The translations under genes and the position numbers were made by a program. From a virus (Duplodnaviria > Caudoviricetes): 64,000 nucleotides of DNA. Below, in pieces: positions 6,264 to 33,222 of the stretch; the stretch's first letter is position 1, and each line of letters starts with the position of its first letter. Location: IMG/VR virus record IMGVR_UViG_3300031088_000758, one strand, 5' to 3'. The notes below the pieces were generated by a model. The model did not search any database, was not told the origin of the DNA, and saw only the letters and a list, made by a program, of their open reading frames with translations.

Positions 6264-6267
6264 TATC

Positions 6268-8363: not shown

Positions 8364-8374
8364 TAAAAACTAAG

Positions 8375-8418: not shown

Positions 8419-8448
8419 TTTATAATTCTAATGAAGCAGATCTTTTAA

Positions 8449-8997: not shown

Positions 8998-9242
8998 TAT
9001 ATACTCTTTTCTTTGTTCCTCTACAAGTGTTACCAGGATAGCTTTAACAAACTATTGTAGCATATGACTGTAGGAGTAGTCAATTTTCTTCGAAAGTTTA
9101 GTTCTATCATGACAAAACAAATAGTTCATTAACTATTCCGTAGCAAACTAGGCCAAACAGGCATGAATATGGATAAAGCTTGTTTCAACCTGTTTAAACA
9201 GCTATTTCTTTATCTTTGTAGGATCTTGACTGTGATAATGAA

Positions 9243-10799
9243 CTATTTGTTTGAATTTTTCTCGAAAATCTTGTCGAAAAGGTTAAATGCTTTTTCTCTC
9301 AATTCAGGATTATTTGTGATAGGTAAATGATCATAGTTATTGAACTTTTCCTTATTTAATAATCTATTGTCAATTCCTAATCTTGAGGAACTATAATGCT
9401 CAAAAAGTCGGGCAAAAATCTCGGTATTTGTTGAAAGATATTCCCTTCGACTCTGAGGTTCACCAGCTGGTATGTCCAAATTTTTAGTATATTCTTTGGC
9501 AATCTCTCTGAATTCAGGTCTTAATGAAGCATTATCTTTTGCAACAAGGTCAAGATAATGTCCATATTCGTGCACAAATGATTCTGAGGTGCGAACATCC
9601 ACTGCCAAAGAGTTTAAGGAGCTTGCGAAGAGCCCCGTTGCATTATGTTTGCCTAGTTTTTTAACAAATATGCGTGGCTCTCTTCCTTCTGGAATTGGAG
9701 GAAGCTTATCTTTTATCTCGTTGTAGGCTTTTTCAAAGTCCGCTAACTCGCCAGGATCAACATCATTATCTAATTCAACACTTTTAAAACTATTGTTTAA
9801 AGAGCTGTTTTTCATCATATCTTTGCGGATATCATCTGTATTCTTCTTTCTGTCAAAAACTCCTGCAATCTTTCCCGAATGTTCCCTAACGTATTTCTTT
9901 TGAGCAATGAAGTTAGAGCCTTCTAATTGAGCATCCTCTAACTTTAACAAAGCATCTGTTATCATGTTTCTCGAATAATCAGATTTTTTTGCTGTCATAA
10001 CAATTTCGTTCCGCAATGCCTCTGGAATCTCTTCGTTATCCTTAATTGCTTCAATAATAGCTTGGTTTTTCAACGCAAAATCTTTGCTTTCAGCTTCAAC
10101 ACTTTCGGTTTTTATAATAGTTTTTATAATGTTTATACCAGTCTTTTTTTCAGCGCGAGCATTTCCAGCCACTTTTCGTAAATCAAGTTTATTCCAATAT
10201 TTATAAGCTTTGAAATATTCATTACCTGTCCTGAATGCATAACGATTAATTTCAGCTCCCGCATTGCCATCAATCACAATTACTTCTTGATCTTCTAACT
10301 GCGCTTTCCAAGCTCTATTTGATTTAAAACCCTTTAAAAGTCTTTCGTCATTTATTTCTTGAATATTCTCAAATCCTTGTTCTGAAAGAAGTTGGATAGC
10401 CTTTTCGTTGTCAATTCCATTGTCAGAAGGCGCAGACAGTGAAGTGAGAAGTCTTGTACCTAATCCATTAACTCTTGTATAGCGAAGTTTTAACTCAGCT
10501 TCAGTAGCTTCGTTTTTAGCGAATTTTCCTCTTAAATCAGCATTAAAGAAACGGTTAGGTACACCTTCGAAATCTTCGTTAAATTGTTCTTCTTGTTTCT
10601 TGAACTCTTTTACAAAGGAATAACGAATCTTTTTATCTGTCAAACCGTGTTCCTTTGACAATTTTTCTTCTATGAAGGATTGTGCCTCTGAAACGTTAGT
10701 GTAGTGCCTTGTATCATCTTCGTCCTGATAAAACCTGCAGTTTGTTGGCTTTTTTGCTTTGCAAGGTTTCACCTCATCTTTGTTGTTTATATGGAACAC
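9243..10799 (-). CDS. HCCH-tagged protein; C-terminal zincin (HExxH)/LPD1-like polyvalent-protein domain
   Basis: N-term FHIN..C.A..C..HY..EA tag; FVHEYGHYLD and YLSTNTEIFARLFEHY. Confidence 0.8.
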   Translation of the reverse strand: MFHINNKDEVKPCKAKKPTNCRFYQDEDDTRHYTNVSEAQSFIEEKLSKEHGLTDKKIRYSFVKEFKKQEEQFNEDFEGVPNRFFNADLRGKFAKNEATEAELKLRYTRVNGLGTRLLTSLSAPSDNGIDNEKAIQLLSEQGFENIQEINDERLLKGFKSNRAWKAQLEDQEVIVIDGNAGAEINRYAFRTGNEYFKAYKYWNKLDLRKVAGNARAEKKTGINIIKTIIKTESVEAESKDFALKNQAIIEAIKDNEEIPEALRNEIVMTAKKSDYSRNMITDALLKLEDAQLEGSNFIAQKKYVREHSGKIAGVFDRKKNTDDIRKDMMKNSSLNNSFKSVELDNDVDPGELADFEKAYNEIKDKLPPIPEGREPRIFVKKLGKHNATGLFASSLNSLAVDVRTSESFVHEYGHYLDLVAKDNASLRPEFREIAKEYTKNLDIPAGEPQSRREYLSTNTEIFARLFEHYSSSRLGIDNRLLNKEKFNNYDHLPITNNPELREKAFNLFDKIFEKNSNK

Positions 10800-10894
10800 T
10801 TTAACTCCCTAATATGGCAAGAATATGTCTGATTTGACTTTATAGTATATTTTCTATATTATATAAATAATGTCTTTCGTTATAGGAGTGGATT

Positions 10895-12004
10895 ATGCAA
10901 GTTTTGAAAAGAACACCTGCTATGGTTATTTTTTTTATGTTTTTTGTAGGGTTAATTTTTGTTCCAGCGTCAGCTAATGCTCAAGGTTTTAAAGATGTGA
11001 AAAATGGGCAGGCATATAGCAAAGAAATCACTAGGATGAGTAATTTGAAGATAACTTCTGGTTACGGAGATGGAACTTATCGACCTAATTCATCTGTTCA
11101 ACGTGATCATATGATTGTCTTTATTTATCGAGCTATGGGTTCTCCCTCGTACAACCCGCCAAAAAAATCGCCTTTTACTGACATTGATTCTAAGAATCCT
11201 TATTACAAGGAAATCATGTGGGCACATAAAGAAGGTATTACTTCAGGTTATGCAATGAAGAACGGAACGAAACAGTTTCGACCTAAAACAAAGGTGCGTA
11301 GAGATCATATGGCTGTGTTCTTGATGAATGCTTCAAATGATAAAAAACCTTCAGTTAAGAGCAAGCCGTTTAAAGATGTCAAGAAAAACTATGCTTATGC
11401 TAAAGAAATCCAATGGATGAAAAACAATGGTATCTCCACAGGTACAGGAAGTGGTCATTACAAACCTAAATCAAACACTACTCGTGGTCATATGGCTGTG
11501 TTTATTACTAGTTGGTTTGATTATTCTGTCTGGCCTAATATGGCTTCTTCTAAAGAGCAAAAAGATTGGACAGCAAGCCTTCCAAAAGCTTGTAAAAATA
11601 TTGAAATTCGTGACTTTGTGAATACTAATCCGAACAAAAATGGTGCTTCCTTCAACGCTAGTGTCAAATATGATGGTAATGGTGTTATGTACTATACGTT
11701 GAAGATTAATGGCAATATGAAGCCAAGTTCTGCAGCTGCTAAGGCGCTTATGAAGCATGAGTGTGGACATGTTCTTATGGGCATTTACTCTGATAATAAG
11801 GGGCGTTCTGTTTTTCGTGCGCAACTTGATAAAGGATGGCCAGCATCAAACACATTACGTGTAGAACATGCTGCAGACTGCATTGCAGATCAGCTAGGTG
11901 CTGTTCGTCAAACCAGTAATTATAAAGTAGGATATGGAACTAAATGTTCATCTGCTCAAAAGAACGTAGCAAAGAATATTGTAAACTATTCACAATATAG
12001 ATGA
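10895..12004 (+). CDS. secreted 3xSLH protein with C-terminal HExxH domain
   Basis: signal peptide (ANA), three F.DV..GIT.G..Y.P..R..MA.F repeats, MKHECGHVLM. Confidence 0.88.
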   Translation: MQVLKRTPAMVIFFMFFVGLIFVPASANAQGFKDVKNGQAYSKEITRMSNLKITSGYGDGTYRPNSSVQRDHMIVFIYRAMGSPSYNPPKKSPFTDIDSKNPYYKEIMWAHKEGITSGYAMKNGTKQFRPKTKVRRDHMAVFLMNASNDKKPSVKSKPFKDVKKNYAYAKEIQWMKNNGISTGTGSGHYKPKSNTTRGHMAVFITSWFDYSVWPNMASSKEQKDWTASLPKACKNIEIRDFVNTNPNKNGASFNASVKYDGNGVMYYTLKINGNMKPSSAAAKALMKHECGHVLMGIYSDNKGRSVFRAQLDKGWPASNTLRVEHAADCIADQLGAVRQTSNYKVGYGTKCSSAQKNVAKNIVNYSQYR

Positions 12005-12086
12005 AATCAAATTTAAAATACTTAATTTTATCTTTCAATATGTTAGATATGATATAAGATATTAAAACAAAAAGGAACCTAATAAA

Positions 12087-13379
12087 ATGATAAAAACAAT
12101 CCATAAAAGATTGCTGTCCATCACTGCTAGTTCTGTCCTTGTAGGAATGATGTTTGCTGCTGGTTTATCACCAGCTATGGCTGACCCTGGTTCTTCTGAT
12201 CCTCTTCATGAAGATGGAATTTCGGAAGAAACTACTGAAACAGTTATTGAAGCTGATGAATTGCAAGAAGCATTAGAGACAAAAGACAGTGACCCCCTTG
12301 TGTTTCATGGTAGTGCTTCTACTACAGCCGCCAAAATCAAGTTTAAGGACGTTAACAAGTCCACTATTTTTTATAACGAGATTACTCAACTTGCGGATTA
12401 TGGCGTGACTGAAGGTTGGAAGAATAAGGATGGTTCTAGAAGGTACGAACCATTGTCAGAAGTTAAACGGGATGCTGTGATTGTGTTCCTATATCGTGCG
12501 ATGGGTTCACCAGAATACACTGCGCCTAAGAAATCACCTTTTGCTGATGTGAAGACAAATAACGTTTTTTACAAAGAAATTGCCTGGGCGCATGATACAG
12601 GCATTTCTACGGGGTGGAAAATGAAGGATGGAACACGTCAGTTTAGGCCACATCAAAATGTTAAGCGTGATGCTATGGCTGCATTCTTAATGAGAGCTAG
12701 CGGAGATAAAGCGCCTTCATATAAAAAAGCTTTTAAAGATGTTTCAGCTAACACGGTTTTTGCAGCCGAAATTCAGTGGATGAAAGATAAAGGTATTTCT
12801 ACTGGTTGGGCTAATGGAACTTATCAGCCCTTGTCTAATACGAAGCGTGATGCTATGGCAGCATTCATGATTCGATGGTTGGATAAAACTCCTCCTTCTA
12901 CTTCTAAAACCCGTAAAGCAACGGTGAAAGAACAAGAAGATTGGACTTCTTATTTACCTTCTGCATGTCAAAAAATCGAAATCAGAAACTTTAGAATCAC
13001 AAATCCCTCTAAGAAGAGCGCTTCCTTCAACGCAAGCGTGACATATGACAAAAATGGAGAAATGTATTATAGTTTGTCAATTGATGGTAATTTGCCTTAC
13101 TATTCAGCACCTGCTAAGGCACTTATGAAGCATGAGTGTGGACATGTTCTTATGGGTATCTATTCCGATACCAAAGGGCGTTCTGCGTTTCGTGCTGAAC
13201 TTGATAAAGGATGGCCTGCATCAAACACATTGCGCGTAGAAAACGCTGCTGATTGTATTGCTGATGAATTAGGTGCTATTCGACAAACTAGTAGTTACAA
13301 AGTAGGATATGGAACTAAATGTTCATCCGCTCAAAAGAATGTAGCAAAAACAATCACAAATTATTCAAAAAATCGTTGA
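12087..13379 (+). CDS. secreted 3xSLH protein with C-terminal HExxH domain
   Basis: signal peptide (AMA), KRDAMAAF SLH repeats, MKHECGHVLM. Confidence 0.88.
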   Translation: MIKTIHKRLLSITASSVLVGMMFAAGLSPAMADPGSSDPLHEDGISEETTETVIEADELQEALETKDSDPLVFHGSASTTAAKIKFKDVNKSTIFYNEITQLADYGVTEGWKNKDGSRRYEPLSEVKRDAVIVFLYRAMGSPEYTAPKKSPFADVKTNNVFYKEIAWAHDTGISTGWKMKDGTRQFRPHQNVKRDAMAAFLMRASGDKAPSYKKAFKDVSANTVFAAEIQWMKDKGISTGWANGTYQPLSNTKRDAMAAFMIRWLDKTPPSTSKTRKATVKEQEDWTSYLPSACQKIEIRNFRITNPSKKSASFNASVTYDKNGEMYYSLSIDGNLPYYSAPAKALMKHECGHVLMGIYSDTKGRSAFRAELDKGWPASNTLRVENAADCIADELGAIRQTSSYKVGYGTKCSSAQKNVAKTITNYSKNR

Positions 13380-13387
13380 ATGTAAAT

Positions 13388-13436
13388 AAAAATAAAATTA
13401 TCTTACATAAAACTACTGTAAGATAATTTTATTTTT
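13388..13436 (+). terminator. inverted repeat, probable terminator
   Basis: 20-bp IR directly after stop. Confidence 0.6.
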
Positions 13437-13525
13437 TCTAAGTTAGAAATAAAAAGCGTAATAAGATATTATAAAAACGTGCCATGATTGAAAAATTCAA
13501 TATGGTTAAATACAAGGAAAAACAA

Positions 13526-14320
13526 ATGAAAAAAATATTTTCTATAATTGCTCTTATCGTAACAAGTGTTATGTTAAGCTCTCTAGCAGCTCCTGCAATG
13601 GCAGCTCAGCCTTTATATACAGTAGCAAAGACTACTACTCAAACTGTTGTTAAAAGCAATACTTTGAACATGCGATCAGGTGCTAGCACTAAGCATAAAG
13701 TTGTAAAAAACCTTAAAAAGAACAATGTTGTTTCTAAAACTGGCAAAAAATCAGGAAAATGGGTTCAAATCAAAGTTAGCAAAACAACAGGATGGGTTCA
13801 CTCTTCTTATTTAACTGCCAAGAAATCAACTAGTTATGCTCCTGCTAAGCCCCGAGTGGCGACAGCAAGTGAACAAAAAGCATGGACAGCTAGCCTTCCT
13901 GCTGCCTGTAAAAAAGTTCAAATTAAAGAATTTATTCATGTTAACAAAAACAAGAATGGGGCTTCTTTTAAAGCAAGTGCCAAATACGATAGTAAAGGAA
14001 AGATGTACTTTACTTTAAGCATTGATGGTAATATGAAACCTACTGATGGTGCAGCTAAGGCACTTATGAAGCATGAGTGTGGACATGTTCTTATGGATAT
14101 CTATTCAAAAGGCAAAGGAAAAACTAACTTCCAGAATACTCTTAGCAAAGGATGGGCATCTTCAAACAAAATGAGAGTTGAAAATGCAGCTGATTGTATT
14201 GCTGATCAGTTAGGTGCTGTTCGTCAAACCAAAAATTATAAAGTAGGGTACGGAACTAAATGTTCATCTGCTCAAAAGAACGTAGCAAAGACAATCACTA
14301 ATTACTCTAAGAATCGTTGA
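13526..14320 (+). CDS. secreted SH3b protein with C-terminal HExxH domain
   Basis: signal peptide, LNMRSGAST..WVQI..GWVHSSYL SH3b, MKHECGHVLM. Confidence 0.88.
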   Translation: MKKIFSIIALIVTSVMLSSLAAPAMAAQPLYTVAKTTTQTVVKSNTLNMRSGASTKHKVVKNLKKNNVVSKTGKKSGKWVQIKVSKTTGWVHSSYLTAKKSTSYAPAKPRVATASEQKAWTASLPAACKKVQIKEFIHVNKNKNGASFKASAKYDSKGKMYFTLSIDGNMKPTDGAAKALMKHECGHVLMDIYSKGKGKTNFQNTLSKGWASSNKMRVENAADCIADQLGAVRQTKNYKVGYGTKCSSAQKNVAKTITNYSKNR

Positions 14321-14336
14321 TTTTAACTAAACATTA

Positions 14337-14381
14337 AAAGCTGGGGATAAAAGCTAAATAATAGCTTTTATCCCCAGCTTT
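14337..14381. terminator. intrinsic terminator
   Basis: 20-bp perfect IR AAAGCTGGGGATAAAAGCTA. Confidence 0.8.
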
Positions 14382-14452
14382 CTAGATATAATTAACTAAT
14401 AACTGTGTTTGATAAGATTATACAAATAGAACCAATGGATACTGAGGTTAAG

Positions 14453-15523
14453 ATGATACGTTTTGAAGATTTACAGAATAAAATTAATGGTTTAGTGTAC
14501 GGCTCAGCTTTAGGTGATGCATGGGGTTATAAAACAGAATTTCAAAAATTCGATAGTATTAAAAGAAATCCCGCTCCTATACCCGAAGAATTAGTGGTTT
14601 CAGATGACACACAGATGAGCATTTACACTATAAAGGCAATTGAAGAATTGTTCAACCAATATAGCATTCATGAAATAGATAATATTGCTTATAATGTAGA
14701 GCTTCAAAATTTTGCGAGAAAAACTTTTGCTAAACATTATTCTGAGTGGTATTCTGATCCTAGAAATAATCGAGCGCCAGGAACTACTTGTATTCAGTCA
14801 TTGCAAAAATATATTAAAACTGAAATAAAGCTACGTGGAAATGAAGGTAGTTGGGGTAATAATAAAAAAGGGTGTGGCACAATAATGCGTGCTCCATGGA
14901 TAGGAGCTCTGCCTCTGAAAAGAGAAACTATTGCAGTGCTATCAATTCTCCAGTCAGAAACCACACATGCTCACCCTACAGCTGGTATCTCTTCTGCTGT
15001 AGCTTCATTAATGGTCAACGATTTATTCAATGAAACATATAATTTATTAGGAAATGACGAAGCCTTTAGAATTGCTTTTAAAATAGTAGAAGAAATTAAA
15101 AGAATAGAGATTCCTTTGGTTGAAAATTCTTTATTAGGCATTCAAGAAGTAGAGAACACTCTAATTGACAGCGTTAATAAATGGGAGTTATTTTTCCATT
15201 CACAAGATGACTATGATATGAATGTTTATTTTGGTGAAGGGTGGATAGCGGAAGAGGCATTGGCTAACTCGATAGCATCTGTAAGTTTGTATTCACCTTC
15301 TTTTTTGAACAATTCTTTAAAAGGTGTTCAAAGATTAGTTTATACTAATGGAGATTCAGATAGTATAGCATCAATAGGTGGGGCTTTCTTAGGTGTTTAC
15401 AATGGTTATAATTCTTTTGATTATCACATAAAAGAAGACATTGAAGAATACTACAAAAGTGAACTTAAATATGTATCAAATTTTCTTATTGACACGATAA
15501 AAGATAATGTTGAAATATATTGA
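14453..15523 (+). CDS. ADP-ribosylglycohydrolase (DraG/ARH family)
   Basis: GSALGDAWG, SDDTQM, GCGTIMR, TTH.HP, NGDSDSIASIGGAFLG. Confidence 0.92.
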   Translation: MIRFEDLQNKINGLVYGSALGDAWGYKTEFQKFDSIKRNPAPIPEELVVSDDTQMSIYTIKAIEELFNQYSIHEIDNIAYNVELQNFARKTFAKHYSEWYSDPRNNRAPGTTCIQSLQKYIKTEIKLRGNEGSWGNNKKGCGTIMRAPWIGALPLKRETIAVLSILQSETTHAHPTAGISSAVASLMVNDLFNETYNLLGNDEAFRIAFKIVEEIKRIEIPLVENSLLGIQEVENTLIDSVNKWELFFHSQDDYDMNVYFGEGWIAEEALANSIASVSLYSPSFLNNSLKGVQRLVYTNGDSDSIASIGGAFLGVYNGYNSFDYHIKEDIEEYYKSELKYVSNFLIDTIKDNVEIY

Positions 15524-15640
15524 TTTTTATCATGGGTTATGTTTTTATTGTATAATTTTATTTTCTATTTAGATATAACATAGAGTTGTTTAAGCAACTT
15601 TTCTTTCGTTAATAAAATAACAAAAAGGATTATATAACAT

Positions 15641-17695
15641 ATGAAAAGCATAAAAAAGAAAATTTATATTACAGCTGCTGTTCTTGCAGCTACAGCACCT
15701 GCTTTGATAGGTGTTCCAGCATTAGCTGATCCGATAACAAACTCTGATACGGTTGCCTCCTCAGGACAGGAGGCAACCGTAAAGCTTATTATTGCTAGTC
15801 TGAGTATTCGAGATATTCCAGATGCTTCCGGTGAAAGACTTGGTGTAATTTCCAGAAATACACCTGCTGTTGTTACAGGAAACGTTGAAGGAAAATATAC
15901 AGAAATATTTCATGAAGGTATTACTGGTTGGGTAGAAACACGTTTTGTGAAAGATTACGAAGGTGAAGCCCCTCAATTACCTCAACCTGAAGAACCTATT
16001 GAAGAAACTTCCGAAACAGTTCAAATTATTGCTAGTTTAAGCATTCGTGAAAAGGCTGACTCTACAAGTACTAGATTAGGTGTAGTTCCAAGATTGTCTA
16101 TTGCTAAGACTACAGGAAAAACAGAAGGAAGCTATTCAGAGATTACTTATAATGGTATTACTGGTTGGGTAGAAACACGTTTTGTAAAAGATTACGAAGG
16201 TGAATTGCCTGAAGAGCCAACTACACCTGAACCTGAAACACCTGAACCTGAAACACCTGAAACTGGGACAAAAGAAACAGTTCAAATCATTGCTAGTTTA
16301 AGCATCCGTGAAAACGCTGATTCTACAAGCACTAGACTAGGTGTAGTTCCAAGGCTATCTATTGCTAAGACCACAGGTGAAGTTGAAGGAAAATATTCTA
16401 GAATCGTTTACGAAGATCTTACTGGTTGGGTAGAGACACGCTTCGTGAAAGACTATGAAGGTGAATTGCCTGAAGAGCCAACAACTCCTACTCCTGAACC
16501 TGAGACACCTATTGAAGATACAACAGATGCCAGAAGAACAGTCACTGCTAGTATCAGTCTCTTCAAAACAGGTGAAGCAAATGAAAGAATCGCTGGTGTA
16601 GTCAGAAACACTAATGTTACGGTTACAGGAAAAACTTATGGTAAGTATACCGAAGTTTCCGTTGATGGTCTTATTGGTTGGGTAGAATCAAGATTTGTTA
16701 AAGAATATGACGCTGAATTTGATGTAACACCTTCTGAAGACTTAAACCCTTCTGATAAGGGAAGTGTTGCTGAATTAGGAAAACAAGAAGTAAGAAGCCC
16801 TAATGCTTATTTCTACCAAAAAGCTGACGCTAAGAGTTTAGTTGTTGCTAAACTTCCTAAGTATTCTGTTGTTGAAGTTTTGGAAATTGATGGTCCATGG
16901 GCAAAGGCTAAACTTGAAAACGGAAAAGAAGGATATGTTGTTGTAACTCACTTAGGTGAATATGTTGCTGATACTTATTCCAAATGGAAACTATCAACTG
17001 ATAGAATGATTCACATCTATGATACAAATGAATCAGGAAGAACAAAAATAACTTCTGAAACTGCGGGAAGACCAATTGAAGTTCTAGAAACTAAAGGTAC
17101 TTGGACTAAGGTTAGAATTTATGACGGAACAAGCACTAGAATTACTGATGGAACTGTTGGTTGGACTCAAACTTCAAAATTAAAGAATTTCAATCCTAGT
17201 GAAGTTACATCAAATGCTTATTATCAGCCTGCAAGCGAAAGAGTTCAACGTCAATGGACTGATGCTCTTCCTAGTGTTTGTAAAGACACTACAATTGCTC
17301 AGGTAGATATAAAGAACACTGATAAAACTGGTGCTAGTTATATTTTCTCCACAAAAGTTGATAGTGAAGGCGGAAACTTCTTCATCATTACTATTGATGG
17401 AAATATTGATCCATTTAGTGAAACTGGTCAAGCAATCATGAAGCATGAATGTGGACATGTTCTTATGACTAAATACGATCAAGAACATGGACGCACTGCT
17501 TGGAGAGCTTTCTTAGACCGTGGATGGCCAAATCGTGAAGCAAGTAGAGTAGAAAACTTAGCAGATTGTATTGCTGATGAGTTAGGTGCTACTCGCGGTG
17601 GAGTTGGTTATGGTACAAGATGTACAGATGCTCAAAAACAATTGGCTAAAGAATTAGTTGATATGTATGCACCTGATGCACGTGAAAATTCTTGA
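15641..17695 (+). CDS. secreted multi-SH3b (about 6) protein with C-terminal HExxH domain
   Basis: signal peptide, repeated SLSIR..GWVETRFVK units, PEPET linkers, MKHECGHVLM. Confidence 0.88.
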   Translation: MKSIKKKIYITAAVLAATAPALIGVPALADPITNSDTVASSGQEATVKLIIASLSIRDIPDASGERLGVISRNTPAVVTGNVEGKYTEIFHEGITGWVETRFVKDYEGEAPQLPQPEEPIEETSETVQIIASLSIREKADSTSTRLGVVPRLSIAKTTGKTEGSYSEITYNGITGWVETRFVKDYEGELPEEPTTPEPETPEPETPETGTKETVQIIASLSIRENADSTSTRLGVVPRLSIAKTTGEVEGKYSRIVYEDLTGWVETRFVKDYEGELPEEPTTPTPEPETPIEDTTDARRTVTASISLFKTGEANERIAGVVRNTNVTVTGKTYGKYTEVSVDGLIGWVESRFVKEYDAEFDVTPSEDLNPSDKGSVAELGKQEVRSPNAYFYQKADAKSLVVAKLPKYSVVEVLEIDGPWAKAKLENGKEGYVVVTHLGEYVADTYSKWKLSTDRMIHIYDTNESGRTKITSETAGRPIEVLETKGTWTKVRIYDGTSTRITDGTVGWTQTSKLKNFNPSEVTSNAYYQPASERVQRQWTDALPSVCKDTTIAQVDIKNTDKTGASYIFSTKVDSEGGNFFIITIDGNIDPFSETGQAIMKHECGHVLMTKYDQEHGRTAWRAFLDRGWPNREASRVENLADCIADELGATRGGVGYGTRCTDAQKQLAKELVDMYAPDARENS

Positions 17696-17726
17696 AAATC
17701 ATTTTAAAAAGATAAAACGATAACAA

Positions 17727-17776
17727 ACAACAAAAAGCACCAAAACTTTTAATTTAGTTTTGGTGCTTTTTGTTGT
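17727..17776. terminator. bidirectional terminator
   Basis: 21-bp perfect IR between convergent genes. Confidence 0.8.
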
Positions 17777-17946
17777 CACTTAGCAGCGTTTAAACATCTG
17801 CGTCCCTTGCTAGCACATACACTCTTCTTTCGGCATCGCCATACCTTCTTGCCGGAGTAATTGTTCCGCTGCCACATGAACTTCGCTCTACGAGTCCTGC
17901 GGCACCGAGTACAAGTATGAAGCATAGTATCCTTCTCGTCATTCAT
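17776..17946 (-). CDS. 56-aa basic Cys-rich small protein (not in ORF track)
   Basis: MNDEKDTMLHTCTRCRRTRRAKFMWQRNNYSGKKVWRCRKKSVCASKGRRCLNAAK; RBS AGGAGG; TTGACA/TATAAT-like promoter upstream. Confidence 0.7.
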   Translation of the reverse strand: MNDEKDTMLHTCTRCRRTRRAKFMWQRNNYSGKKVWRCRKKSVCASKGRRCLNAAK

Positions 17947-18090
17947 AACAACATCCTCCTGGCCTTAAACTCTTGTGTAATAATTTTATTATATCATAAA
18001 TACAATATTCTTGTCAAATTCCTCAAAAAAGCCTCTTAACCTTAGTCAAAACGTAAAAATATTCTCTATAAAAAATCCTTAAAACACCTT

Positions 18091-18147
18091 AGAAAATATA
18101 CCCCAAAAAGATTCCTATTTAACAACGCTTTTTGGGCTATATTTTTA
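18091..18147. repeat. palindromic element copy 1 (about 20-bp arms, 17-nt spacer)
   Basis: AGAAAATATACCCCAAAAAG-N17-CTTTTTGGGCTATATTTTTA; related to 40521-40577. Confidence 0.7.
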
Positions 18148-18275
18148 TATTTTTAGAAGCTTTTAACGAAAAACGTTTTTTAGGGTAAGAGGGGACCAAA
18201 CTTAAGAAATAATTCGCCACAATGCTTTACATGGTTTTAGTTGCCACTCATCTTATTGTTTCACAAGGAATAATC

Positions 18276-18929
18276 TCATATGAATTTGAGAGAACTTGAA
18301 TCTTTTGATTTTGTATGAACATCACCGTTTTTAAAACCTATTGTTATATGTAAATTATGTTTAGGTAATTCGAGTCCTCTTCTGTATTCATCAATCTCTT
18401 TTGAATCAGCTGTAATGAACCATGCTTCCTTATCGTTGTCAGATACAGAACCAATTCCAGTTAAAGCAACACTGAAATCAGGTAGATCAATATTTTGACC
18501 TTTTTTCTTTAAACTTCTGGTTTCTTTAGGAGATAAAGCTGTAATGTGAAAATGATATCCTCCATCACGATTGATTTTAGCCTCTTCCATTTCTTGGGCT
18601 AAATCATTTCCAATTTCATTTCGCCACACTTTTAAATATTGCTGAATTGATTCTTCGGGAATACTTAACCCATAATAACTACCACCCTTTTTAGCCTTAA
18701 GACGTGAAGATAGTGTAATTTGAGGAAGATTTACTTTTTTAGGAAAACCATTATTGCTCTTCTTATATAGAACTGTTTGTGAAAGATTCAACATTTTCTC
18801 TTCGTAAATTTTCTGTGCTTCTTGCACGTTGTCATAATGAGAATCGTTCGAATCTCTTGTGATAGGGCAATTTCCCTTTTTAGCTGAACATAGTTTAGGT
18901 CCATCTTCTGTTATATGATAATTATTCAT
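18276..18929 (-). CDS. HCCH-tagged 2H phosphoesterase
   Basis: N-term tag; two HxT motifs (FHITALS, LHITIGF). Confidence 0.85.
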   Translation of the reverse strand: MNNYHITEDGPKLCSAKKGNCPITRDSNDSHYDNVQEAQKIYEEKMLNLSQTVLYKKSNNGFPKKVNLPQITLSSRLKAKKGGSYYGLSIPEESIQQYLKVWRNEIGNDLAQEMEEAKINRDGGYHFHITALSPKETRSLKKKGQNIDLPDFSVALTGIGSVSDNDKEAWFITADSKEIDEYRRGLELPKHNLHITIGFKNGDVHTKSKDSSSLKFI

Positions 18930-19037
18930 AACTAGTATTCCTTAAGTCTTTATAAGCATATAGTAATATTATCTAATGAATTGTTAATTTCACTAACATA
19001 AATTACCTAAAAAGTGGATAGTGTTTTTGTAAAAAGT

Positions 19038-19793: not shown

Positions 19794-19841
19794 GTAAAGC
19801 CTCTCAAATATTTAACGTATGCTAATTTTATCAATATATTG

Positions 19842-21809: not shown

Positions 21810-21871
21810 TATTCACCTTGAGCTTTTTATTGATTTTTATCGAATATCAAAAGAATCTTTGAATATTTAGG

Positions 21872-22888: not shown

Positions 22889-22918
22889 TGTTGTTCATCC
22901 TTGTGAATTATGTTTGTA

Positions 22919-23848: not shown

Positions 23849-23948
23849 TGTTAGCTCCATATTAAAAATACCTTCAAAATATGATTATCTAAACACTGTA
23901 TTTTTAAAATATTTGGGTATTCTTTATATTGAAATTTTTCAACTACTA

Positions 23949-25274
23949 TCATTGATTTCTTGGGTCATCCGGGTCTAAGTTGTTCCCACTATACCCATTC
24001 TTATCTGCCCATTCTTTAAAACCGGGCAATTGTTTGCTAAGAATAGCGGTCCAATCTAGCTTTTCTGCGTTCTCAACTAAATATTTATCATCAGGCAAAT
24101 CACCTTTTTGTGCTTCCTTCATGAAAAACGCTAAACTGTCAGCTGCTTGTTTAGTATCCCCAAAAGAAATTTCAGCAAAATAACCATGCTTATTGCTGCT
24201 TGCATAAGGTAAATCCCCTGAGTCCTTATTCCAATTAGTCAAACCATTAATAATGATTGAATCAGTGTTGCGATGTTCATATACGCTGAAACTGCGAGTA
24301 TTACCGTCAGGCTGATACACAGTATAAACATTTCCTACTTCACGACCATTAACAAAAGCGTCAACTTTTACATTTTTAACACCGTTTTCTTTTAAAGAGT
24401 TTTTTAATTCTTCATTTGGAAAAGCGAGTGCTAAATATGCTTTTTGATCATAAGGATTACCACTTTCATCTTTAGATAACATGGCAAACACTCTTTGATC
24501 AGGATTCATATACGAAGTTTCCCATTCATGTCCCATGTTCAAATCATCATAAGCATCAGCTTTGAGGGTCAATTTATCACCTGCATTAATACGATTCAAA
24601 GCTTCATCAACATGTTTCTCGTCACCAAAACTAGTCTTTCCATAAATAGAGTTATCTTCAATATAGCTTTCATAAGCGCTTTCTAATTCACTAGGATTAT
24701 AAAAAACCTCTTTCAAATCACTACGATCACGAGGTATCACTAATTCGTGTGTTTCTTGTTCCCATTTTTTACGAATTGCTAAAACTTTTGGTAACTCTGT
24801 TAAATACTCATCACGATATATAGGATCGTTGCTACTCCAACCACTCTTCTTAAAACGGTTCTTTTTAGGTCTCAGCATTTTAATTAAATCATCAGCTTTT
24901 TTGAAGTCTTCGTCACTGACATTATTCTTATCTAAAATTTTGGCAACTTTCTCAACTATAATAAAATTCTCTTTTTCATCAGCGGTCCAACTGTTTTCAT
25001 CTCGAAAAATATTATCATAAATGTATTTTATAGTGCTGCTGTCACGCGCTGTGCTAGGATTTATAATTTTTGATATACGATTATCTAATCTGTCAATATC
25101 CGCTGATTCAGCTTCCATCGTAATTTCATAACTCTTTTGAGCGTCTTCTTTAGAGTCGAAGTGTTGAACAGCAACAGTTCCATTTTTACTGAATTTGCAA
25201 CCCTTAGCAGTTTTTGCTTGACACTTATTAGCATTGCCAGTTTCGGGATTAACGTGATAACGCACTGATGACAT
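23949..25274 (-). CDS. HCCH-tagged protein, unknown C-terminal domain
   Basis: YHVNPETG..C.A..C..HF..EDA tag; VYEHRNTD motif. Confidence 0.8.
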   Translation of the reverse strand: MSSVRYHVNPETGNANKCQAKTAKGCKFSKNGTVAVQHFDSKEDAQKSYEITMEAESADIDRLDNRISKIINPSTARDSSTIKYIYDNIFRDENSWTADEKENFIIVEKVAKILDKNNVSDEDFKKADDLIKMLRPKKNRFKKSGWSSNDPIYRDEYLTELPKVLAIRKKWEQETHELVIPRDRSDLKEVFYNPSELESAYESYIEDNSIYGKTSFGDEKHVDEALNRINAGDKLTLKADAYDDLNMGHEWETSYMNPDQRVFAMLSKDESGNPYDQKAYLALAFPNEELKNSLKENGVKNVKVDAFVNGREVGNVYTVYQPDGNTRSFSVYEHRNTDSIIINGLTNWNKDSGDLPYASSNKHGYFAEISFGDTKQAADSLAFFMKEAQKGDLPDDKYLVENAEKLDWTAILSKQLPGFKEWADKNGYSGNNLDPDDPRNQ

Positions 25275-25325
25275 ATTAATGCTCCTTTTTAAAAATATAC
25301 TATTTTAGTATCTAAAAGAAAAACA

Positions 25326-26372
25326 TCAATTAGGGGTGTATCCTTCAATCCAGTCTTCAACATACTTTAAAGGTGTTTCATCATTATATTCAGGAAAATT
25401 GACAGAAGGAACAATTTCTTTGTTAGGGTTTGTTAAATGTTTTGTATAATCAAAACCCTGCTGAGTGAAACTGCCACTTGAATGAACTTTCTCAACATTG
25501 TGTTCTTTCGCCAACTCATTTAATAATTTCTTCATATACCCTTGTTGTCTGTATTCTGGACGAGTTTCCAATGTCATTAAATGTGGGCCATCATCTTCTA
25601 AGCGATAATGTGCCACAGCAACTTTCACTTCATCAACTTTCAAAAAACTTACATAACTACCATTAAGTTTTTTCATCGGTTTGTCTAAAACAGCTGTCTC
25701 CAACAAAGGATTGTATTCGTCTGGTTTAACTTTTGGCAGTTCAGCAGCTCGTGGATCTGGAGGTGGTGGAATATAATCTTCAACCCCCATGAAAGAAATT
25801 TTGTCTAAATCTTTTTTCCAATTGTCTAAACTGTCAACATATGGGTAATCCGCATTAGGATTTACTTCACTATACGCAAAATCAACAACGTATTCTTCCC
25901 GTGCACCAGTATCAGGATTCTTCACAGTAAAAATATTTGCTGAATGTTCTTGTATCTCGTTTCCAATTGGTGTATATGTTGTTGTCGAAAGTGGGATAAA
26001 ATATTCTTCTTCATCATCTTCCATTGGCTGAGAAAAAGCACTTATATAATCTGCTATTGCTTTGCTGTTTCCTTGTGAATGTTCTTGGTATGAGGATAAA
26101 TCAAAATATTCCCATTCTTTTCCATTAATAACGATTTTTCTACCGGATTCATTAATAGCAACAACTGTGTCCATATTATCATTTTCTATAACTTTCAACC
26201 ATTTAGTTTCAGCTACGCTTTTAATTGGTTTTGTTGACATAATCTTTTCGAAATGTGCTTGTGCTTCTTGCTTGTTGTTGAAATGTGGCATTGAATCACC
26301 GAAAGGACATGATATAGATGCCTTACACGGCTTTGCTTCACCCGTAGATGGACTTATATGGTATTTACTCAT
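25326..26372 (-). CDS. HCCH-tagged GNAT acetyltransferase
   Basis: N-term tag; LETRPEYRQQGYMKKLL acetyl-CoA-binding motif A. Confidence 0.8.
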   Translation of the reverse strand: MSKYHISPSTGEAKPCKASISCPFGDSMPHFNNKQEAQAHFEKIMSTKPIKSVAETKWLKVIENDNMDTVVAINESGRKIVINGKEWEYFDLSSYQEHSQGNSKAIADYISAFSQPMEDDEEEYFIPLSTTTYTPIGNEIQEHSANIFTVKNPDTGAREEYVVDFAYSEVNPNADYPYVDSLDNWKKDLDKISFMGVEDYIPPPPDPRAAELPKVKPDEYNPLLETAVLDKPMKKLNGSYVSFLKVDEVKVAVAHYRLEDDGPHLMTLETRPEYRQQGYMKKLLNELAKEHNVEKVHSSGSFTQQGFDYTKHLTNPNKEIVPSVNFPEYNDETPLKYVEDWIEGYTPN

Positions 26373-26454
26373 TGTCTATCTGTATCCTTAAAAAAGTCTC
26401 TTAAAACACTATATATGACTTTCTAATGTTTGCGAAGATGTGTACTCCAATTTT

Positions 26455-27114
26455 TTATAAGTCATATGCTACGAGAACATTATCTTGAGTGTATCCAACT
26501 TGACCACCATCAACCATTCCCACCCAAGAAGGAAGAGATTTATAATCAAGGTTTTCTATCGGTGATACCCTTTCCATCTTAATATAGAATAAGTCATCTT
26601 TTTCAATTGCTTCTGTTTTAGCAATAGGAATATAATCTTCAGGACTTTTTATGTACCCATCACTAGTTCTCACTTCAAGAGAAGATGCTGTGACACCTTC
26701 ATCAGTAATAGGTATTTTTATTACAGAATCTTTCTCCATGAAAACTACACGAGTTCTTGCGCATACGATACTATCTGTTTTATTCATATATTCATACACA
26801 AGTTCTAAAGTCTTATCCGCATATTCCTCACCAAAAGCCGAACTTAATTCCTCATTTACTATACGATATGCTAAAGAAAAATCATCTTTATGCTTTTCAG
26901 GGACTTTGTATTTCCCAATTTTAACCAATTTTTTAGAATGACTTTTGTTTAATTTCTGTAATGAATCATGTTGTTCTTCGTATATTTCACTTGCCCATTT
27001 CCTGGCTTGGTTTAATGAACCTTCAAAATGAGGTGAATCGCTACCTAATGGACATTGGATTCGAGCTGAACAAATTTTAGCATCTCCATCATTATTTATA
27101 TGGTATTTTGTCAT
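26455..27114 (-). CDS. HCCH-tagged protein, possible minimal kinase-like fold
   Basis: N-term tag; RTRVVF..VIKIP..E..YIKMERV..D..QVG..LVAYD. Confidence 0.65.
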   Translation of the reverse strand: MTKYHINNDGDAKICSARIQCPLGSDSPHFEGSLNQARKWASEIYEEQHDSLQKLNKSHSKKLVKIGKYKVPEKHKDDFSLAYRIVNEELSSAFGEEYADKTLELVYEYMNKTDSIVCARTRVVFMEKDSVIKIPITDEGVTASSLEVRTSDGYIKSPEDYIPIAKTEAIEKDDLFYIKMERVSPIENLDYKSLPSWVGMVDGGQVGYTQDNVLVAYDL

Positions 27115-27169
27115 TTTAAAACACTCTTTGTTTGTCATCATTTATATTTTGTGCGAATACCTTGTAATT

Positions 27170-28006
27170 TCAGTATCCTCTTGTTTCATAAATTTCTTTT
27201 TCAAGCTCTCTTCTCTTCTGTTCAAGCTTTTTAATTTTCTGCTCTTGTTCTTCTTTTTTCTGTTTTCTTTCAGCGTCTTCACGAAGAAAAGCTTCAGCAC
27301 CTTCATCACGAATTACAGAAGTGATTATAGAAGCGCCATTATGTTTTGAATTCCTTACATCATCTATACTTTTTCCCATTATGTAGCTATCTTTCATTGA
27401 ATTCATTGTAGTTTTATCATTGTGCAATAAAACATGGTTTCCTAAATGGCCTGTTTTTATTCTTGCTGTGTAATTTACAGGACCCGAAGAATTAGGATAC
27501 ATAGAAACTGTAATAATATCCCCGGTTTGAACTTCTGAAAGTGGAACTTCTTTAAACTCACCAACAGGCTTGACAGTTTTGTCAGTATGATACAACTCTC
27601 TATCATCGTACAAAGTAGTATTTCCACTGTAATGAAATTTATCTTGTATCTCCTTTTCGGAATACCCCTGGGCTTTGTACTTGCTGTAGAGAGTGTCAAA
27701 TTTGTCCATTATCTTCTGAGTATTTTTATTAGATTTTACTAATTGTTTCTCACGCCTTTTTTCTTCTCTACTTTTCTTCGCAGAAGACTTAGCAAAAGTA
27801 CCATAATCTCTTTGAAGAGCATTTTGAGCAACATCACTTTGAGGGTCAGCTTCAATCATCATGCTTTCATAATCGGCCTGTAAGTCTTGTGCTTTCTCCG
27901 AATCACCAGATTGAATTGCTTCCTTAATCTCATTTTCGTAACTCTTTATAGCAGTATCTTTTGCACAAAATTTACCTGCTGCATCATGATAAGGGTTGCC
28001 TGACAT
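27170..28006 (-). CDS. hypothetical protein with N-terminal NPYHDxxGKF motif
   Basis: ATG at 28006 after AGGAG; MSGNPYHDAAGKFC. Confidence 0.75.
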   Translation of the reverse strand: MSGNPYHDAAGKFCAKDTAIKSYENEIKEAIQSGDSEKAQDLQADYESMMIEADPQSDVAQNALQRDYGTFAKSSAKKSREEKRREKQLVKSNKNTQKIMDKFDTLYSKYKAQGYSEKEIQDKFHYSGNTTLYDDRELYHTDKTVKPVGEFKEVPLSEVQTGDIITVSMYPNSSGPVNYTARIKTGHLGNHVLLHNDKTTMNSMKDSYIMGKSIDDVRNSKHNGASIITSVIRDEGAEAFLREDAERKQKKEEQEQKIKKLEQKRRELEKEIYETRGY

Positions 28007-28191
28007 AATAAATCTCCTAAATAGAACTTCATTTTCTTGTTTTTCTAACAAAAACTTAAACAATAGAACCTACTGCCCTAAACAACATTATTTTGTCCTT
28101 GTTTACCGATTCGAGAACAATATTTGAAAATCTACTTTTAATAAATTTGATAAACTATTCCACAGAAAAAACGAAAGGGCCTGCTAAAACA

Positions 28192-29417: not shown

Positions 29418-29451
29418 GAATATGAATGTAATTAAGTAGTTAGGGAACTTT

Positions 29452-29607
29452 ATGAAAATTAAGGAAATCAGAGAGATTCAGCCTGAACTGGCAAGGTGTA
29501 TCGAAGTTGACTCCCCCGACCGATTATTTGCGGTTGAAGGAACCAGAAAAGATTCTGACAAGAATAACCAAAACAGCAGTGCAGCTAGTAAAATTATCAC
29601 CCACAAT
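29452..29607 (+). mobile_element. split intein C-half #1 (class 3)
   Basis: MKIKEI..RCIEVDSPDRLFAV..ITHN followed by Ser. Confidence 0.85.
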
Positions 29608-30267
29608 TCAGTCATCCAGCGCAATATTCTGTTCGGCGCTATTCTTCGTCCTGATAGTTGGCGAGTGCTTTGCATAGATTTGAAGAAAGTGGAATTATCA
29701 GGATACAGGGCTTACTCTAATGTTGTATTAGGCGTCGCCACAACTATTGAAGATGCTTTAACTGTTCTAAGGTTTGCTCAACAGACAATGATGAAAAGAT
29801 ATGCGGAGATGGAATCCTTGGGCGTAAATAATTTCTTAGATCTTCCAGAACAGGGCCAGGCACTAATGCTAATGGTCGATGAAGCAGGTGAATTGCTTTC
29901 TCCCTCTGGTGTAAAAGCGCTGGTAAGTTCAACAATTCTTCCAACTCCTGATGGTAAAATAAAACTAGAAAATTTAAACATTGGCGACACAATTTATGAC
30001 AATTACGGACAAGAAACCGTTATCACTAATAAATACACACCAGTTGAACAATCACGTTATGAAATAAAAATAACTAGTGATAAAACAAAAATTAGCGAAA
30101 ATTTTGTTGCTGGTTCAGAACATAACTGGGTTGCTTATTTCACGTATCCTGATGGTGAAGTTGAAGGTCCAGAAATTGTTGATACACAATACTTATATGA
30201 ATTTAAAAAACACCAAGAAACATTCCCCATTGAAGAACGCACAACTGTTAAATTTAAAAAAGGCTGA
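29452..30267 (+). CDS. FtsK-family ATPase middle fragment flanked by split-intein halves (IntC-extein-IntN)
   Basis: IntC ends THN|S; extein IDLKKVEL..RY..LMVDEAGELL (Walker B); IntN begins K|ALVSSTILPTPDG. Confidence 0.88.
   Translation: MKIKEIREIQPELARCIEVDSPDRLFAVEGTRKDSDKNNQNSSAASKIITHNSVIQRNILFGAILRPDSWRVLCIDLKKVELSGYRAYSNVVLGVATTIEDALTVLRFAQQTMMKRYAEMESLGVNNFLDLPEQGQALMLMVDEAGELLSPSGVKALVSSTILPTPDGKIKLENLNIGDTIYDNYGQETVITNKYTPVEQSRYEIKITSDKTKISENFVAGSEHNWVAYFTYPDGEVEGPEIVDTQYLYEFKKHQETFPIEERTTVKFKKG
29917..30264 (+). mobile_element. split intein N-half #2 (Ala1, class 3)
   Basis: ALVSSTILPTPDG..LNIGDTIYD..G; block B AGSEHNW; ends in stop with no C-half. Confidence 0.85.
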
Positions 30268-30422
30268 TCTTTATTTGTTAATATTGTCCATGTTCAAACT
30301 TTAAAAATTGTCAAAATACTATACGGAATAGTTTAAAATCAGTTGCTATATTTAGGTTATTTAATCTGTTTTTCTTGGTAAGATACATATAAGAAAGACA
30401 ATATTGAGTGGAGCTTTTGCAA

Positions 30423-32237: not shown

Positions 32238-32370
32238 ATAAAAATATATGACGTTTTAAAATTTTGGTTTCTAAAACTTCAAAATTATTTATTATTCTAA
32301 GATAGAAAACTCTTTGTTAATATTGTTTATTCATAGTAAACGATTAAAATGTCTATTAGGTAGGTTCAAT

Positions 32371-33222
32371 ATGTTTTATCATGTAAGTAATGATGGTGTC
32401 CCAAGAGTTTGTCATGCAACATCACCTTCTAAGTGCCCTATATCTAAAAGCGGGGATTTAAAAGAACACTTTATGGATACTGTAGAAGCAGCAAAAGCCT
32501 ATGAAAACCATATGGAATCAAAAAATTCGAAAAACATTCTACAAAAGACCAAATCTTCCAAAAATGATTCAACTGGTTCTTTTTCCTATGTTGATTCTGA
32601 TACAGTTAATCTTTTTAAAAACAAAATTCAAGAACTTTACCCATTGTTTAAAAATTATTCTCATGATTACACTAACTATAATCCTGATGAACGACCTGGT
32701 GAACGTGAATTCATAGAAAACTATAACCCTAAGAAATACACGGATAAAGATGTCTCATATACCGCTGATAATATTATTTTGCGTGTAGATCCAGAAGATA
32801 ATGTTTTAAAAGTTCTTATGATAAAAAGAGGTGGACATCCTTATAAGAATCATTGGGCACATCCTGGTGGTTTTATTGATGATATAAAAGATGGTACAGG
32901 TTCTATCATGCGGTCTGAGACAAGGTTTGAAGCGGCTTCACGCGAACTTAAAGAAGAAACTGGAATGATTGTTGAACCACATCAAATGGACGCTGTAAAC
33001 GTCTATAAACACCATGGAAGAGACCCCCGTATGGATGTTCACATGAATACGCATGTCGTACTTATGGATGAAGAACGTGAGTTTGAAGCAGCTGATGATG
33101 CTACTGATGCAAAGTATATTCCTGTTTCAGATATCTATTCTGATAAAATTGATGTAGCTTTTGACCATAAACTAAGCATTAAAGATGCGTTAAACTTTGT
33201 CATCAAATCAAACAAAAATTAA
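32371..33222 (+). CDS. HCCH-tagged Nudix hydrolase (ADP-ribose pyrophosphatase-like)
   Basis: MFYHVSNDG..C.A..CP..HF..EA tag; WAHPGGF..AASRELKEETG, RDPR, AFDH. Confidence 0.88.
   Translation: MFYHVSNDGVPRVCHATSPSKCPISKSGDLKEHFMDTVEAAKAYENHMESKNSKNILQKTKSSKNDSTGSFSYVDSDTVNLFKNKIQELYPLFKNYSHDYTNYNPDERPGEREFIENYNPKKYTDKDVSYTADNIILRVDPEDNVLKVLMIKRGGHPYKNHWAHPGGFIDDIKDGTGSIMRSETRFEAASRELKEETGMIVEPHQMDAVNVYKHHGRDPRMDVHMNTHVVLMDEEREFEAADDATDAKYIPVSDIYSDKIDVAFDHKLSIKDALNFVIKSNKN

Follow-up and report, generated by a model that had tools for sequence, protein, structure and literature searches.

An apparently undescribed N-terminal His-Cys-Cys-His module heads unrelated enzymes in a family of giant plasmid-like elements

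Polyvalent proteins (PMC5512222; Iyer, Burroughs, Anand, de Souza and Aravind 2017) carry 2 to 15 effector domains on each polypeptide and, together with ArdC, are described as travelling with the DNA. The polymorphic toxins, including the LXG/T7SS and MuF types, are built differently: a constant N-terminal head (about 200 aa and helical for LXG, a domain of its own for MuF) is joined to unrelated C-terminal enzymes, homologous cargo can bear alternative heads, and a cognate immunity gene lies immediately downstream of the toxin. The capsid targeting sequence of phage T4, found on the internal proteins and Alt, is an N-terminal address common to unrelated proteins that accompany the DNA; it is a peptide of about 10 residues that is cleaved by the prohead protease. 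Known signals of T4SS substrates are C-terminal. Among giant mobile genomes, Bacillus phage G has expanded a small zinc ribbon in a lineage-specific way to about 35 copies, which are described as standing alone and to which a role in transcription control or DNA binding is ascribed as a proposal (PMC7824862). The Inocles are circular extrachromosomal elements of oral Streptococcus, about 245-395 kb long, that are intracellular and not particle-borne, their DNA being missing from filtered particle fractions treated with nuclease (PMC12340149).

The window considered here, a stretch of 64,000 nt analysed over its whole length, belongs to a 727-kb phyllosphere metagenome contig. Exactly eight of its ORFs open in a module of about 48 aa with a His-Cys-Cys-His (H-C-C-H) pattern. 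Their starts, seven on the minus strand and one on the plus strand, are those claimed in the initial annotation, and a Shine-Dalgarno-like AGGAG/AAGGA sequence lies ahead of every one. Three related near-complete elements (G1, G2 and G3, rated complete by CheckV) served for comparison. The tagged genes, and last a neighbouring ORF, are as follows.

9243 to 10799, minus strand: tagged ORF 1, 518 aa, module about 10656-10799 (43 bits against the foreign profile described below); C-terminus with a weak match to LPD1, a zincin-associated domain (E 1e-4; 22.6 bits, cut-off 27)
18276 to 18929, minus strand: tagged ORF 2, 217 aa, module about 18786-18929; 2H-SAK phosphoesterase (Pfam, E 2e-15), likewise tagged in its G3 orthologue
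21872 to 22888, minus strand: tagged ORF 3, 338 aa, module about 22745-22888 (80 bits); first of the tandem five
22919 to 23848, minus strand: tagged ORF 4, 309 aa with the ATG at 23848 as start, the length that the public record's gene call also gives, and another ATG upstream at 23860; module about 23705-23848
23949 to 25274, minus strand: tagged ORF 5, 441 aa, module about 25104-25274; C-terminus phrog_6319-like
25326 to 26372, minus strand: tagged ORF 6, 348 aa, module about 26229-26372; C-terminal GNAT acetyltransferase (Pfam Acetyltransf_1, 23 bits, above cut-off)
26455 to 27114, minus strand: tagged ORF 7, 219 aa with the ATG at 27114 as start, and another ATG upstream at 27141; module about 26971-27114
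32371 to 33222, plus strand: tagged ORF 8, 283 aa with the ATG at 32371 as start, and a TTG upstream at 32314; module 32371-32520; NUDIX hydrolase (Pfam, E 2e-13)
27170 to 28063, minus strand: ORF lying immediately upstream of the tandem five, N-terminus ..NPYH..GKFC.K....Y.

The 2H, Nudix and GNAT labels first given to these cargos are borne out by Pfam, LPD1 stays below threshold, and the ART-like identity of the ORF 3 cargo is only a lead: this cargo matched no family in the Pfam search, and in the ESM Atlas its feature rows reach 0.83-0.84 with ART-PolyVal, PARP and Arr. The ParB-like and kinase-like labels find no support in Pfam, PHROGs or the PDB; the same three sources yielded no family assignment for the ORF 4 and ORF 7 cargos, and the IVDGYHR motif in the C-terminus of ORF 4 is ParB-like by eye only. 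A second NUDIX paralogue, at 410-1150, has no tag, and the window also contains phage-like genes (YqaJ, Mom-like, split DnaE and tmRNA).

As the initial annotation had stated, five tagged genes lie in tandem at 21872-27114, all on the minus strand. The gaps between them are 30-100 nt and hold no same-strand ORF of at least 60 aa, and hence no immunity-type small gene; the proposed designation of a polymorphic effector system therefore does not fit. The arrangement does resemble the LXG, MuF and polymorphic-toxin systems in its constant head on unrelated enzymes. However, the head is here a 48-aa mini-domain of metal-binding type, the cargos are takeover and repair enzymes rather than obvious toxins, and no link to T7SS or a virion was seen. 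Swappable-head behaviour is also observed, with homologous cargo occurring under other N-terminal heads. The module is present on 32 of 46 homologues of the ORF 5 cargo, and one such homologue (P0304) has in its place an NPYH..GKF start. The N-terminus of the neighbouring ORF at 27170-28063 gives no match with the module profile, and the NPYH..GKF start may represent a cysteine-poor alternative handle.

The eight aligned N-termini share five invariant residues (His4, Cys14, Ala16, Cys21 and His29). A profile built from 55 modules of other metagenomes, with no window sequence included, picked out exactly these eight ORFs in a six-frame search (43-80 bits, E 2e-12 to 5e-24), the best non-tag segment scoring 5.3 bits, and the regular expression of the initial annotation matched eight times in the window against none in 200 shuffles. 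The window tags are on average 36% identical in aa and 50% in nt, so they are old paralogues and not recent copies. The pattern H, C, A, C, H is invariant in 150/150 of the best 150 of 4,697 profile matches, and besides the four ligands there are conserved surface positions at Y3, G9, A16, P22, E/A 35-36 and Y/E 40-41. In the AF2 model (pLDDT 81; hairpin 2-5 and 11-14; helix 33-47), the module is an autonomous N-terminal mini-domain of about 48 residues, composed of a beta-hairpin, a loop and an alpha-helix. One zinc ion is probably held by the His of strand 1, the Cys of strand 2, the loop Cys and the His preceding the helix. The module is slightly acidic, with an average net charge of -0.7. 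The 30 residues that follow it are rich in K, E, L and S and about neutral, so the Lys/Ser linker first described is not general. Phage G likewise multiplies a small metal-binding domain within one giant mobile genome, but its ribbons are not enzyme heads (PMC7824862).

The module is portable and, as proposed, almost strictly N-terminal. It begins at residue 1-15 in 262/266 collected proteins (98%) and is internal or C-terminal in two; within the best 150 of the 4,697 cluster representatives found at E<=1e-3, it begins at residue 1 in 146. It seldom stands alone (15 short profile matches against 381 longer ones). Some proteins nevertheless consist of modules only, with three in tandem or in the order module - coiled coil - module, and two proteins have a C-terminal module. 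In 185,579 species genomes the module is all but missing, the strict pattern occurring at one locus only, and tblastn of a phage collection returned no match to it.

The suggestion that the domain is undescribed is supported: nothing in Pfam, NCBIfam, PHROGs or the PDB was found to cover it, and the HMM matched no characterised domain. No Pfam model covers the module region in the eight window proteins or 150 other full proteins; for 63 isolated modules the best Pfam match was DUF7552 (E 0.003, in 7 of the 63). NCBIfam gave nothing below E 0.016, PHROGs nothing on the N-termini, and the PDB profile search a best E of 0.06. Among fold searches, Foldseek returned nothing at E<=0.001, and the best VIA match had a Z of 4.0, with top rows of Kunitz-like topology. 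The module is absent from the mentions of zinc, cysteine and ZnR in PMC5512222, and the Inocle paper (PMC12340149) does not mention it. The domain is abundant, with thousands of clusters at 50% identity, yet missing from the family libraries and literature searched.

Cargos found by Pfam beyond the window include ADPrib_exo_Tox, RNA_lig_T4_1, Zeta_toxin, YqaJ, RNase_T and LPD29, and there are also ArdcN with Peptidase_M78, zf-C4_Topoisom and a CCA enzyme; G1 and G3 have tagged ART-PolyVal and ArdC-like metallopeptidase (Peptidase_M78/DUF6782) proteins. The orthologues of ORF 2 and ORF 5 in G3 and G1 (37-42% identity) retain the tag, which, with the low identity among the window tags, speaks for a stable association of tag and cargo. 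This cargo overlaps the polyvalent-protein repertoire, and the fused domains (LPD1, 2H-SAK, NUDIX, GNAT, ART-PolyVal and ArdC-type) are, as had been noted, typical of phage and plasmid polyvalent proteins. In PMC5512222, the counterparts are LPD1, LPD29, ART-PolyVal, ArdC-N with a zincin peptidase, 2H, NUDIX and RNA-repair domains, and both the kind of host element and the presumed early role after DNA entry are the same. The difference lies in the architecture. Instead of several effector domains on one polypeptide, there are separate enzymes of 200-520 aa (217-518 aa in the window) with a common small N-terminal His/Cys domain, each with at most one recognisable cargo domain, in the window and likewise in G1 and G3.

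The window is syntenic with its relatives, which span 32-56% GC. Related elements of 0.3-0.8 Mb have 11-15 module copies apiece, and in one 828-kb contig 11 tagged genes lie within 20.8 kb. An AAA_10 (VirB4-like) ATPase (157-177 bits) and a TraG-D_C (VirD4-like) coupling protein (36-43 bits) are encoded in 3/3 of G1-G3, providing a point of likeness to T4SS substrates, and a TpcC (TcpC-like) protein in 2/3; in G3, 10 of the 14 tagged genes are at most 50 kb from the VirD4/TcpC genes. The window itself has no transfer genes. Four Pfam models (Terminase_6C, Terminase_6N, Phage_capsid and Phage_portal) matched nothing in G1-G3, and the positive controls were detected. Because VirB4-, VirD4- and TcpC-like genes are present and terminase, portal and HK97 capsid went undetected, these resemble giant conjugative elements of the Inocle kind more than they resemble phages, and the module is a hallmark of a widespread giant (0.3-0.8 Mb) plasmid-like family with Gram-positive-type conjugation genes. 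The family resembles the Inocles in a GC of about 32%, a size of hundreds of kb, VirB4, VirD4, DNA polymerase III alpha, gyrase, a RecD-like helicase, sigma factors and NrdH, although the likeness is one of gene content alone and the circular Inocles are smaller than the 727-kb contig (PMC12340149). Three of the relatives are held in IMG/VR as viral records, BFVD lists 11 proteins with the module under 'Siphoviridae sp. ctHip2', and module clusters in the ESM Atlas are labelled Uroviricota.

The reading we prefer, with a probability of about 0.35, is that the module is a protein-recognition handle and that a transfer apparatus co-delivers the separate effectors. Each element places the module on some 10-20 separate enzymes acting on RNA, DNA, NAD or proteins, of the same kinds that other mobile elements string into single polyvalent proteins. 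A single partner encoded by the element would recognise the handle, the best candidate being the conjugative transfer machinery or the coupling protein that belongs to it, and the separately encoded effectors would pass into the cell just entered, or work jointly there, as a 'distributed polyvalent protein'. The tagged genes may, however, lie in the leading region and be expressed early from the incoming DNA, in which case transfer of the proteins would be unnecessary. It is tentatively possible that the giant elements inject into the recipient, before expression begins, at least a dozen separately encoded enzymes for anti-defence, RNA repair and NAD modification, with a folded, zinc-stabilised N-terminal domain as a Gram-positive-type T4SS export signal. 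Against delivery by such a signal stands the C-terminal position of the known ones, which would make a folded N-terminal one unprecedented.

The proteins made of modules only and those with a C-terminal module point to a general binding domain more than to an address label, and the cargo-less tandem modules together with the slightly acidic charge leave other partner-binding readings open. In one of these, which we consider doubtful, the module would be a docking handle for a common partner or hub, with no role in transport. The hub might be the host RNA polymerase, the ribosome or SSB-coated DNA, or else an element-encoded scaffold, chaperone or inhibitor that would hold the enzymes together, silent or short-lived. 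The two- and three-module proteins and those with a coiled coil between modules resemble multivalent adaptors, the charge suits contacts with protein better than with nucleic acid, the surface is strongly conserved besides the four ligands, and a single shared control would be economical where there are no per-gene immunity partners. Yet no candidate hub was found, a docking domain does not need so strict an N-terminal position, and a host hub would leave the restriction to T4SS-bearing giant elements unexplained.

It is rather unlikely that the module is a nucleic-acid-binding zinc domain that tethers the enzymes to RNA, ssDNA or a hybrid. The layout would parallel that of RNase H1, in which a flexible linker joins a small N-terminal hybrid-binding domain to the catalytic one; the sequence pattern of the module may resemble that of the RNase H1 N-domain. 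Such a tether could let the proteins ride the transferred strand. Many cargos are of a suitable kind (RNA ligases, CCA enzyme, RNase T, YqaJ, 2H, NUDIX and the topoisomerase zinc finger), tandem modules are common among nucleic-acid binders, and there are structural matches to an ESM Atlas cluster of DUF5710 plus RNase H from giant viruses (TM 0.52 over 40 residues) and weak rows to ribosomal large-subunit chains. The acidic charge speaks against this reading, the ART, GNAT, zincin and Zeta-kinase cargos need no nucleic acid, the 63 isolated modules gave no Pfam match to Cauli_VI (PF01693) or zinc fingers at E<=10, and no PDB fold exceeds a Z of 4, the top rows being Kunitz-like.

That the module is a capsid-packaging address and the elements are huge phages injecting head-loaded enzymes, the virion loading first envisaged, is very improbable: the virus labels and the phage-like genes of the window favour it, but the relatives have VirB4-, VirD4- and TcpC-like genes and no match to the four terminase, capsid and portal models (which huge-phage structural proteins can escape). 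The tag also differs from the T4 targeting peptide in being a conserved domain of 48 aa, modelled as folded.

The module provides a simple sequence marker for poorly known giant plasmid-like elements that are currently filed as phages in virus catalogues, and for their effector arsenals, in which many cargo domains have no known function. Should its role be docking or nucleic-acid binding, it would still be a new family of small metal-binding folds that is readily accessible to experiment. If it is a delivery signal, it would represent a new protein-translocation code and a T4SS signal of a new class, offering a modular counterpart to polyvalent proteins, and everything that these elements send into a new host could in practice be listed and fused to reporters.

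Eight genes carry the module, an N-terminal His-Cys-Cys-His domain of about 48 residues, and the ORF listing places their starts where the initial annotation had put them (10799, 18929, 22888, 23848, 25274, 26372 and 27114 on the minus strand; 32371 on the plus strand). Five of the genes do lie head to tail, at 21872-27114 (-), and an AGGAG/AAGGA-type ribosome-binding stretch precedes every one of the eight proposed starts. The ORF listing shows no immunity-like genes between the tandem tagged genes. Five residues are invariant across the eight heads: His4, Cys14, Ala16, Cys21 and His29, numbered as in the ORF starting at 22888. The regular expression that first defined the group gives 8 matches in the window and none in 200 shuffles. 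A profile of 55 modules from other metagenomes, which includes no window sequences, picks exactly these eight ORFs from the six-frame translation (43-80 bits; the runner-up segment scores 5.3 bits). With only 36% protein and 50% DNA identity among them, the heads are, to judge from these values, old paralogous modules that protein-level selection has kept, not recent copies; the 50% nucleotide identity led us to reject gene conversion or a recent duplication as the origin of the common heads.

Within 160 nt upstream of all eight tagged genes, the GATATT motif is absent. Several of them (18929, 23848, 25274 and 32371) have a TAGATAAT/TAGATAC-like box 30-60 nt upstream, which may be a shared promoter element distinct from the GATATT motif.

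Among 1.84 billion cluster representatives, 4,697 proteins match a profile built on the eight heads at E<=1e-3, and 158 of them still do so at E<=1e-10. Among the best 150 of the 4,697, the H, C, A, C and H residues are invariant, and the match begins at residue 1-5 in 146. The N-terminal placement also holds in the 266 collected members (median length 266 aa): the module lies within the first 15 residues in 262 and is C-terminal in two, and seven members have two or three modules per protein. A word-indexed search returned 381 longer module proteins versus 15 of 26-97 aa, so stand-alone modules are rare. The view that this is not a named domain was upheld, as the module falls outside every Pfam, NCBIfam and PHROG model and has no PDB sequence match; literature and library searches found no paper or family-library entry describing it. 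One 50-aa copy has no tblastn match at E<=0.01 in the phage collection, and the tandem block has no megablast match in the phage and plasmid collections.

AlphaFold2, given a 63-sequence alignment, predicts a confident small fold (pLDDT 81) in which a loop connects a beta-hairpin (residues 2-5 and 11-14) to a helix (33-47). Foldseek of the module against the PDB returned nothing at E<=0.001, and the good matches in BFVD and the ESM Atlas are solely other members of the family. In a VIA-wide fold search the best hits were Kunitz-like rows (Z up to 4.0), with no convincing PDB relative, and the likeness of the predicted fold to these rows is one of topology only. From the invariant H-C-C-H set we infer that the module would bind zinc. 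Co-folding two module copies with zinc scored 0.00, with the partner fold uncertain, and so speaks neither for nor against self-association. We rejected an ATCUN-type N-terminal metal site, since the His does not always sit at position 3.

The window derives from a phyllosphere metagenome; ENA lists one of its proteins on a 727,572-bp metagenome contig, and a relative is located on a JGI contig of 828,236 bp (L002). Among the sequencing runs, no RNA run is listed as containing the tandem block. Three related IMG/VR records of 309, 438 and 345 kb have 11, 21 and 14 module matches, respectively, where the 21 correspond to about 15 distinct copies because the 438-kb record is partly palindromic. 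In this record (G002; 437,576 bp) the matches form mirror-image pairs up to ~107 kb from each end, so either its "inverted terminal repeats" are very long or they are an artefact of fold-back assembly. Every module copy is N-terminal in the other two records, G1 and G3. Arrays can be very dense: in L002 (GC 56%; 3431-18920) a single strand carries 11 tagged genes within 20.8 kb, and one protein of this array, P0005, has two tandem modules. In 185,579 species genomes the strict module pattern turns up at one place, a 7.6-kb MAG contig with 3 tagged genes. The GC content of the element family spans 32-56%.

Other genes noted in the window:
61024-61378 (-), the element's own tmRNA (Rfam, 122.5 bits; tag peptide ANANKNDFALAA)
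55607-57094 (-), DnaE part 1, PHP and N-terminal part
54450-55550 (-), clamp-loader gene, between the DnaE parts
52653-54317 (-), four-repeat DUF4379 protein, between the DnaE parts
48883-52599 (-), DnaE part 2, the remainder, with an intein
29452-30267 and 36735-37625 (+), FtsK/SpoIIIE-like ATPase in two pieces 6.5 kb apart, with a tagged NUDIX gene in between

The replication block, which includes the split DnaE and the clamp loader, shows synteny with G1 and G3 (40-70% identity). This places them in one element family, and both have the same split DnaE layout. The FtsK/SpoIIIE-like ATPase is a single contiguous gene in G1 (382 aa) and G3 (368 aa), and its two pieces in the window fit a split-intein reading. 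A VirB4-like AAA_10 ATPase (157-177 bits), a VirD4-like TraG-D_C protein and an FtsK-like ATPase are each present in all three related records, and TpcC in two. The data favour a conjugative element. The closest described type, by gene-content profile, is the Inocle; Inocles are intracellular, low in GC and hundreds of kb long, with VirB4 and VirD4 and their own DnaE, gyrase, RecD and sigma factors (PMC12340149). Hodor megaplasmids (44-47% GC, about 357 kb, human gut) were set aside because GC and habitat differ (PMC12934698).

Two further gene groups were noted. One, at 410-5489 (-) and 14405-15523 (+), lies beside the tagged genes and has an NAD/ADP-ribose theme (NrtR-like NUDIX regulator, DUF3841 protein, isochorismatase/nicotinamidase, HAD_SAK_2, NAPRTase and ADP-ribosylglycohydrolase), to which a SIR2 family protein somewhere in the window can be added. 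The other comprises four secreted proteins at 10895-17695 (+) with SLH or SH3 N-terminal parts and a common C-terminal domain of ~130 aa, with an HExxH-like "MKHECGHVLM" motif and conserved cysteines; they may represent an element-encoded family of wall-anchored metallopeptidases.

The cargos, i.e., the parts of the tagged proteins beyond the module, had been described as eight unrelated enzymes. Pfam confirms the 2H-SAK, NUDIX and GNAT labels, and gives a match for LPD1 that is sub-threshold. "ART-like", for 21872-22888, survives as a lead only: ESM-Atlas feature rows link it to ART-PolyVal, PARP and Arr (0.83-0.84), and structural rows to DUF2441, DUF3841 and DUF4291. Searches of Pfam, PHROGs and PDB sequences gave nothing to support the "ParB-like" and "kinase-like" labels. 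PHROGs adds unknown-function families only, and the four cargos without family assignment have no match among PDB sequences.

Here each tagged protein has at most one recognisable cargo domain. Fusions across the family include ADP-ribosyltransferases (ADPrib_exo_Tox, ART-PolyVal), T4-type RNA ligase, CCA/poly(A) polymerase with HD, RNase T, YqaJ, Zeta/AAA_33 kinases, NUDIX, GNAT, NTP_transf_2, LPD29, a topoisomerase zinc finger, and ArdC-N joined to an M78/zincin peptidase. Polyvalent proteins, which are thought to enter the recipient together with the DNA, have this repertoire (PMC5512222). The tag is retained on orthologous cargos in different elements. For the cargo of ORF 5 (23949-25274, minus strand), the module is found on 32 of 46 homologues; the remaining 14 have other N-termini, one of which (P0304) starts with NPYH..GKF in place of it. 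A cysteine-poor motif of this kind, NPYH..GKF...K....A, heads the untagged ORF beside the tandem five (27170-28063, minus strand), and further Cys/His-rich heads start the ORF 5 cargo homologues P0286, P0288 and P0295.

Three observations point to a recognition handle common to a functional cohort and away from a substrate-binding domain: the strictly N-terminal position, surface conservation that extends past the four ligands, and confinement to T4SS-bearing giant elements combined with polyvalent-type cargo. We rank first, at a probability of roughly 35%, the co-delivery of tagged proteins through the transfer apparatus, which would recognise the module and carry the tagged enzymes along. 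Modules-only proteins and the two C-terminal copies speak against a pure address label, and known T4SS signals are C-terminal as well. A docking or control handle with no part in transport comes second, as a somewhat doubtful reading. That the module is a nucleic-acid-binding domain is less likely again; it is slightly acidic (charge -0.7) and some cargos are non-nucleic-acid, both of which speak against simple binding of this kind. Packaging into a capsid, the virion form of the original proposal, is very improbable, and Terminase_6C, Terminase_6N, Phage_capsid and Phage_portal were undetected in G1-G3 with control genomes positive. A constant head on variable effectors is a known principle; what is new is the domain, along with its scale and its host elements.
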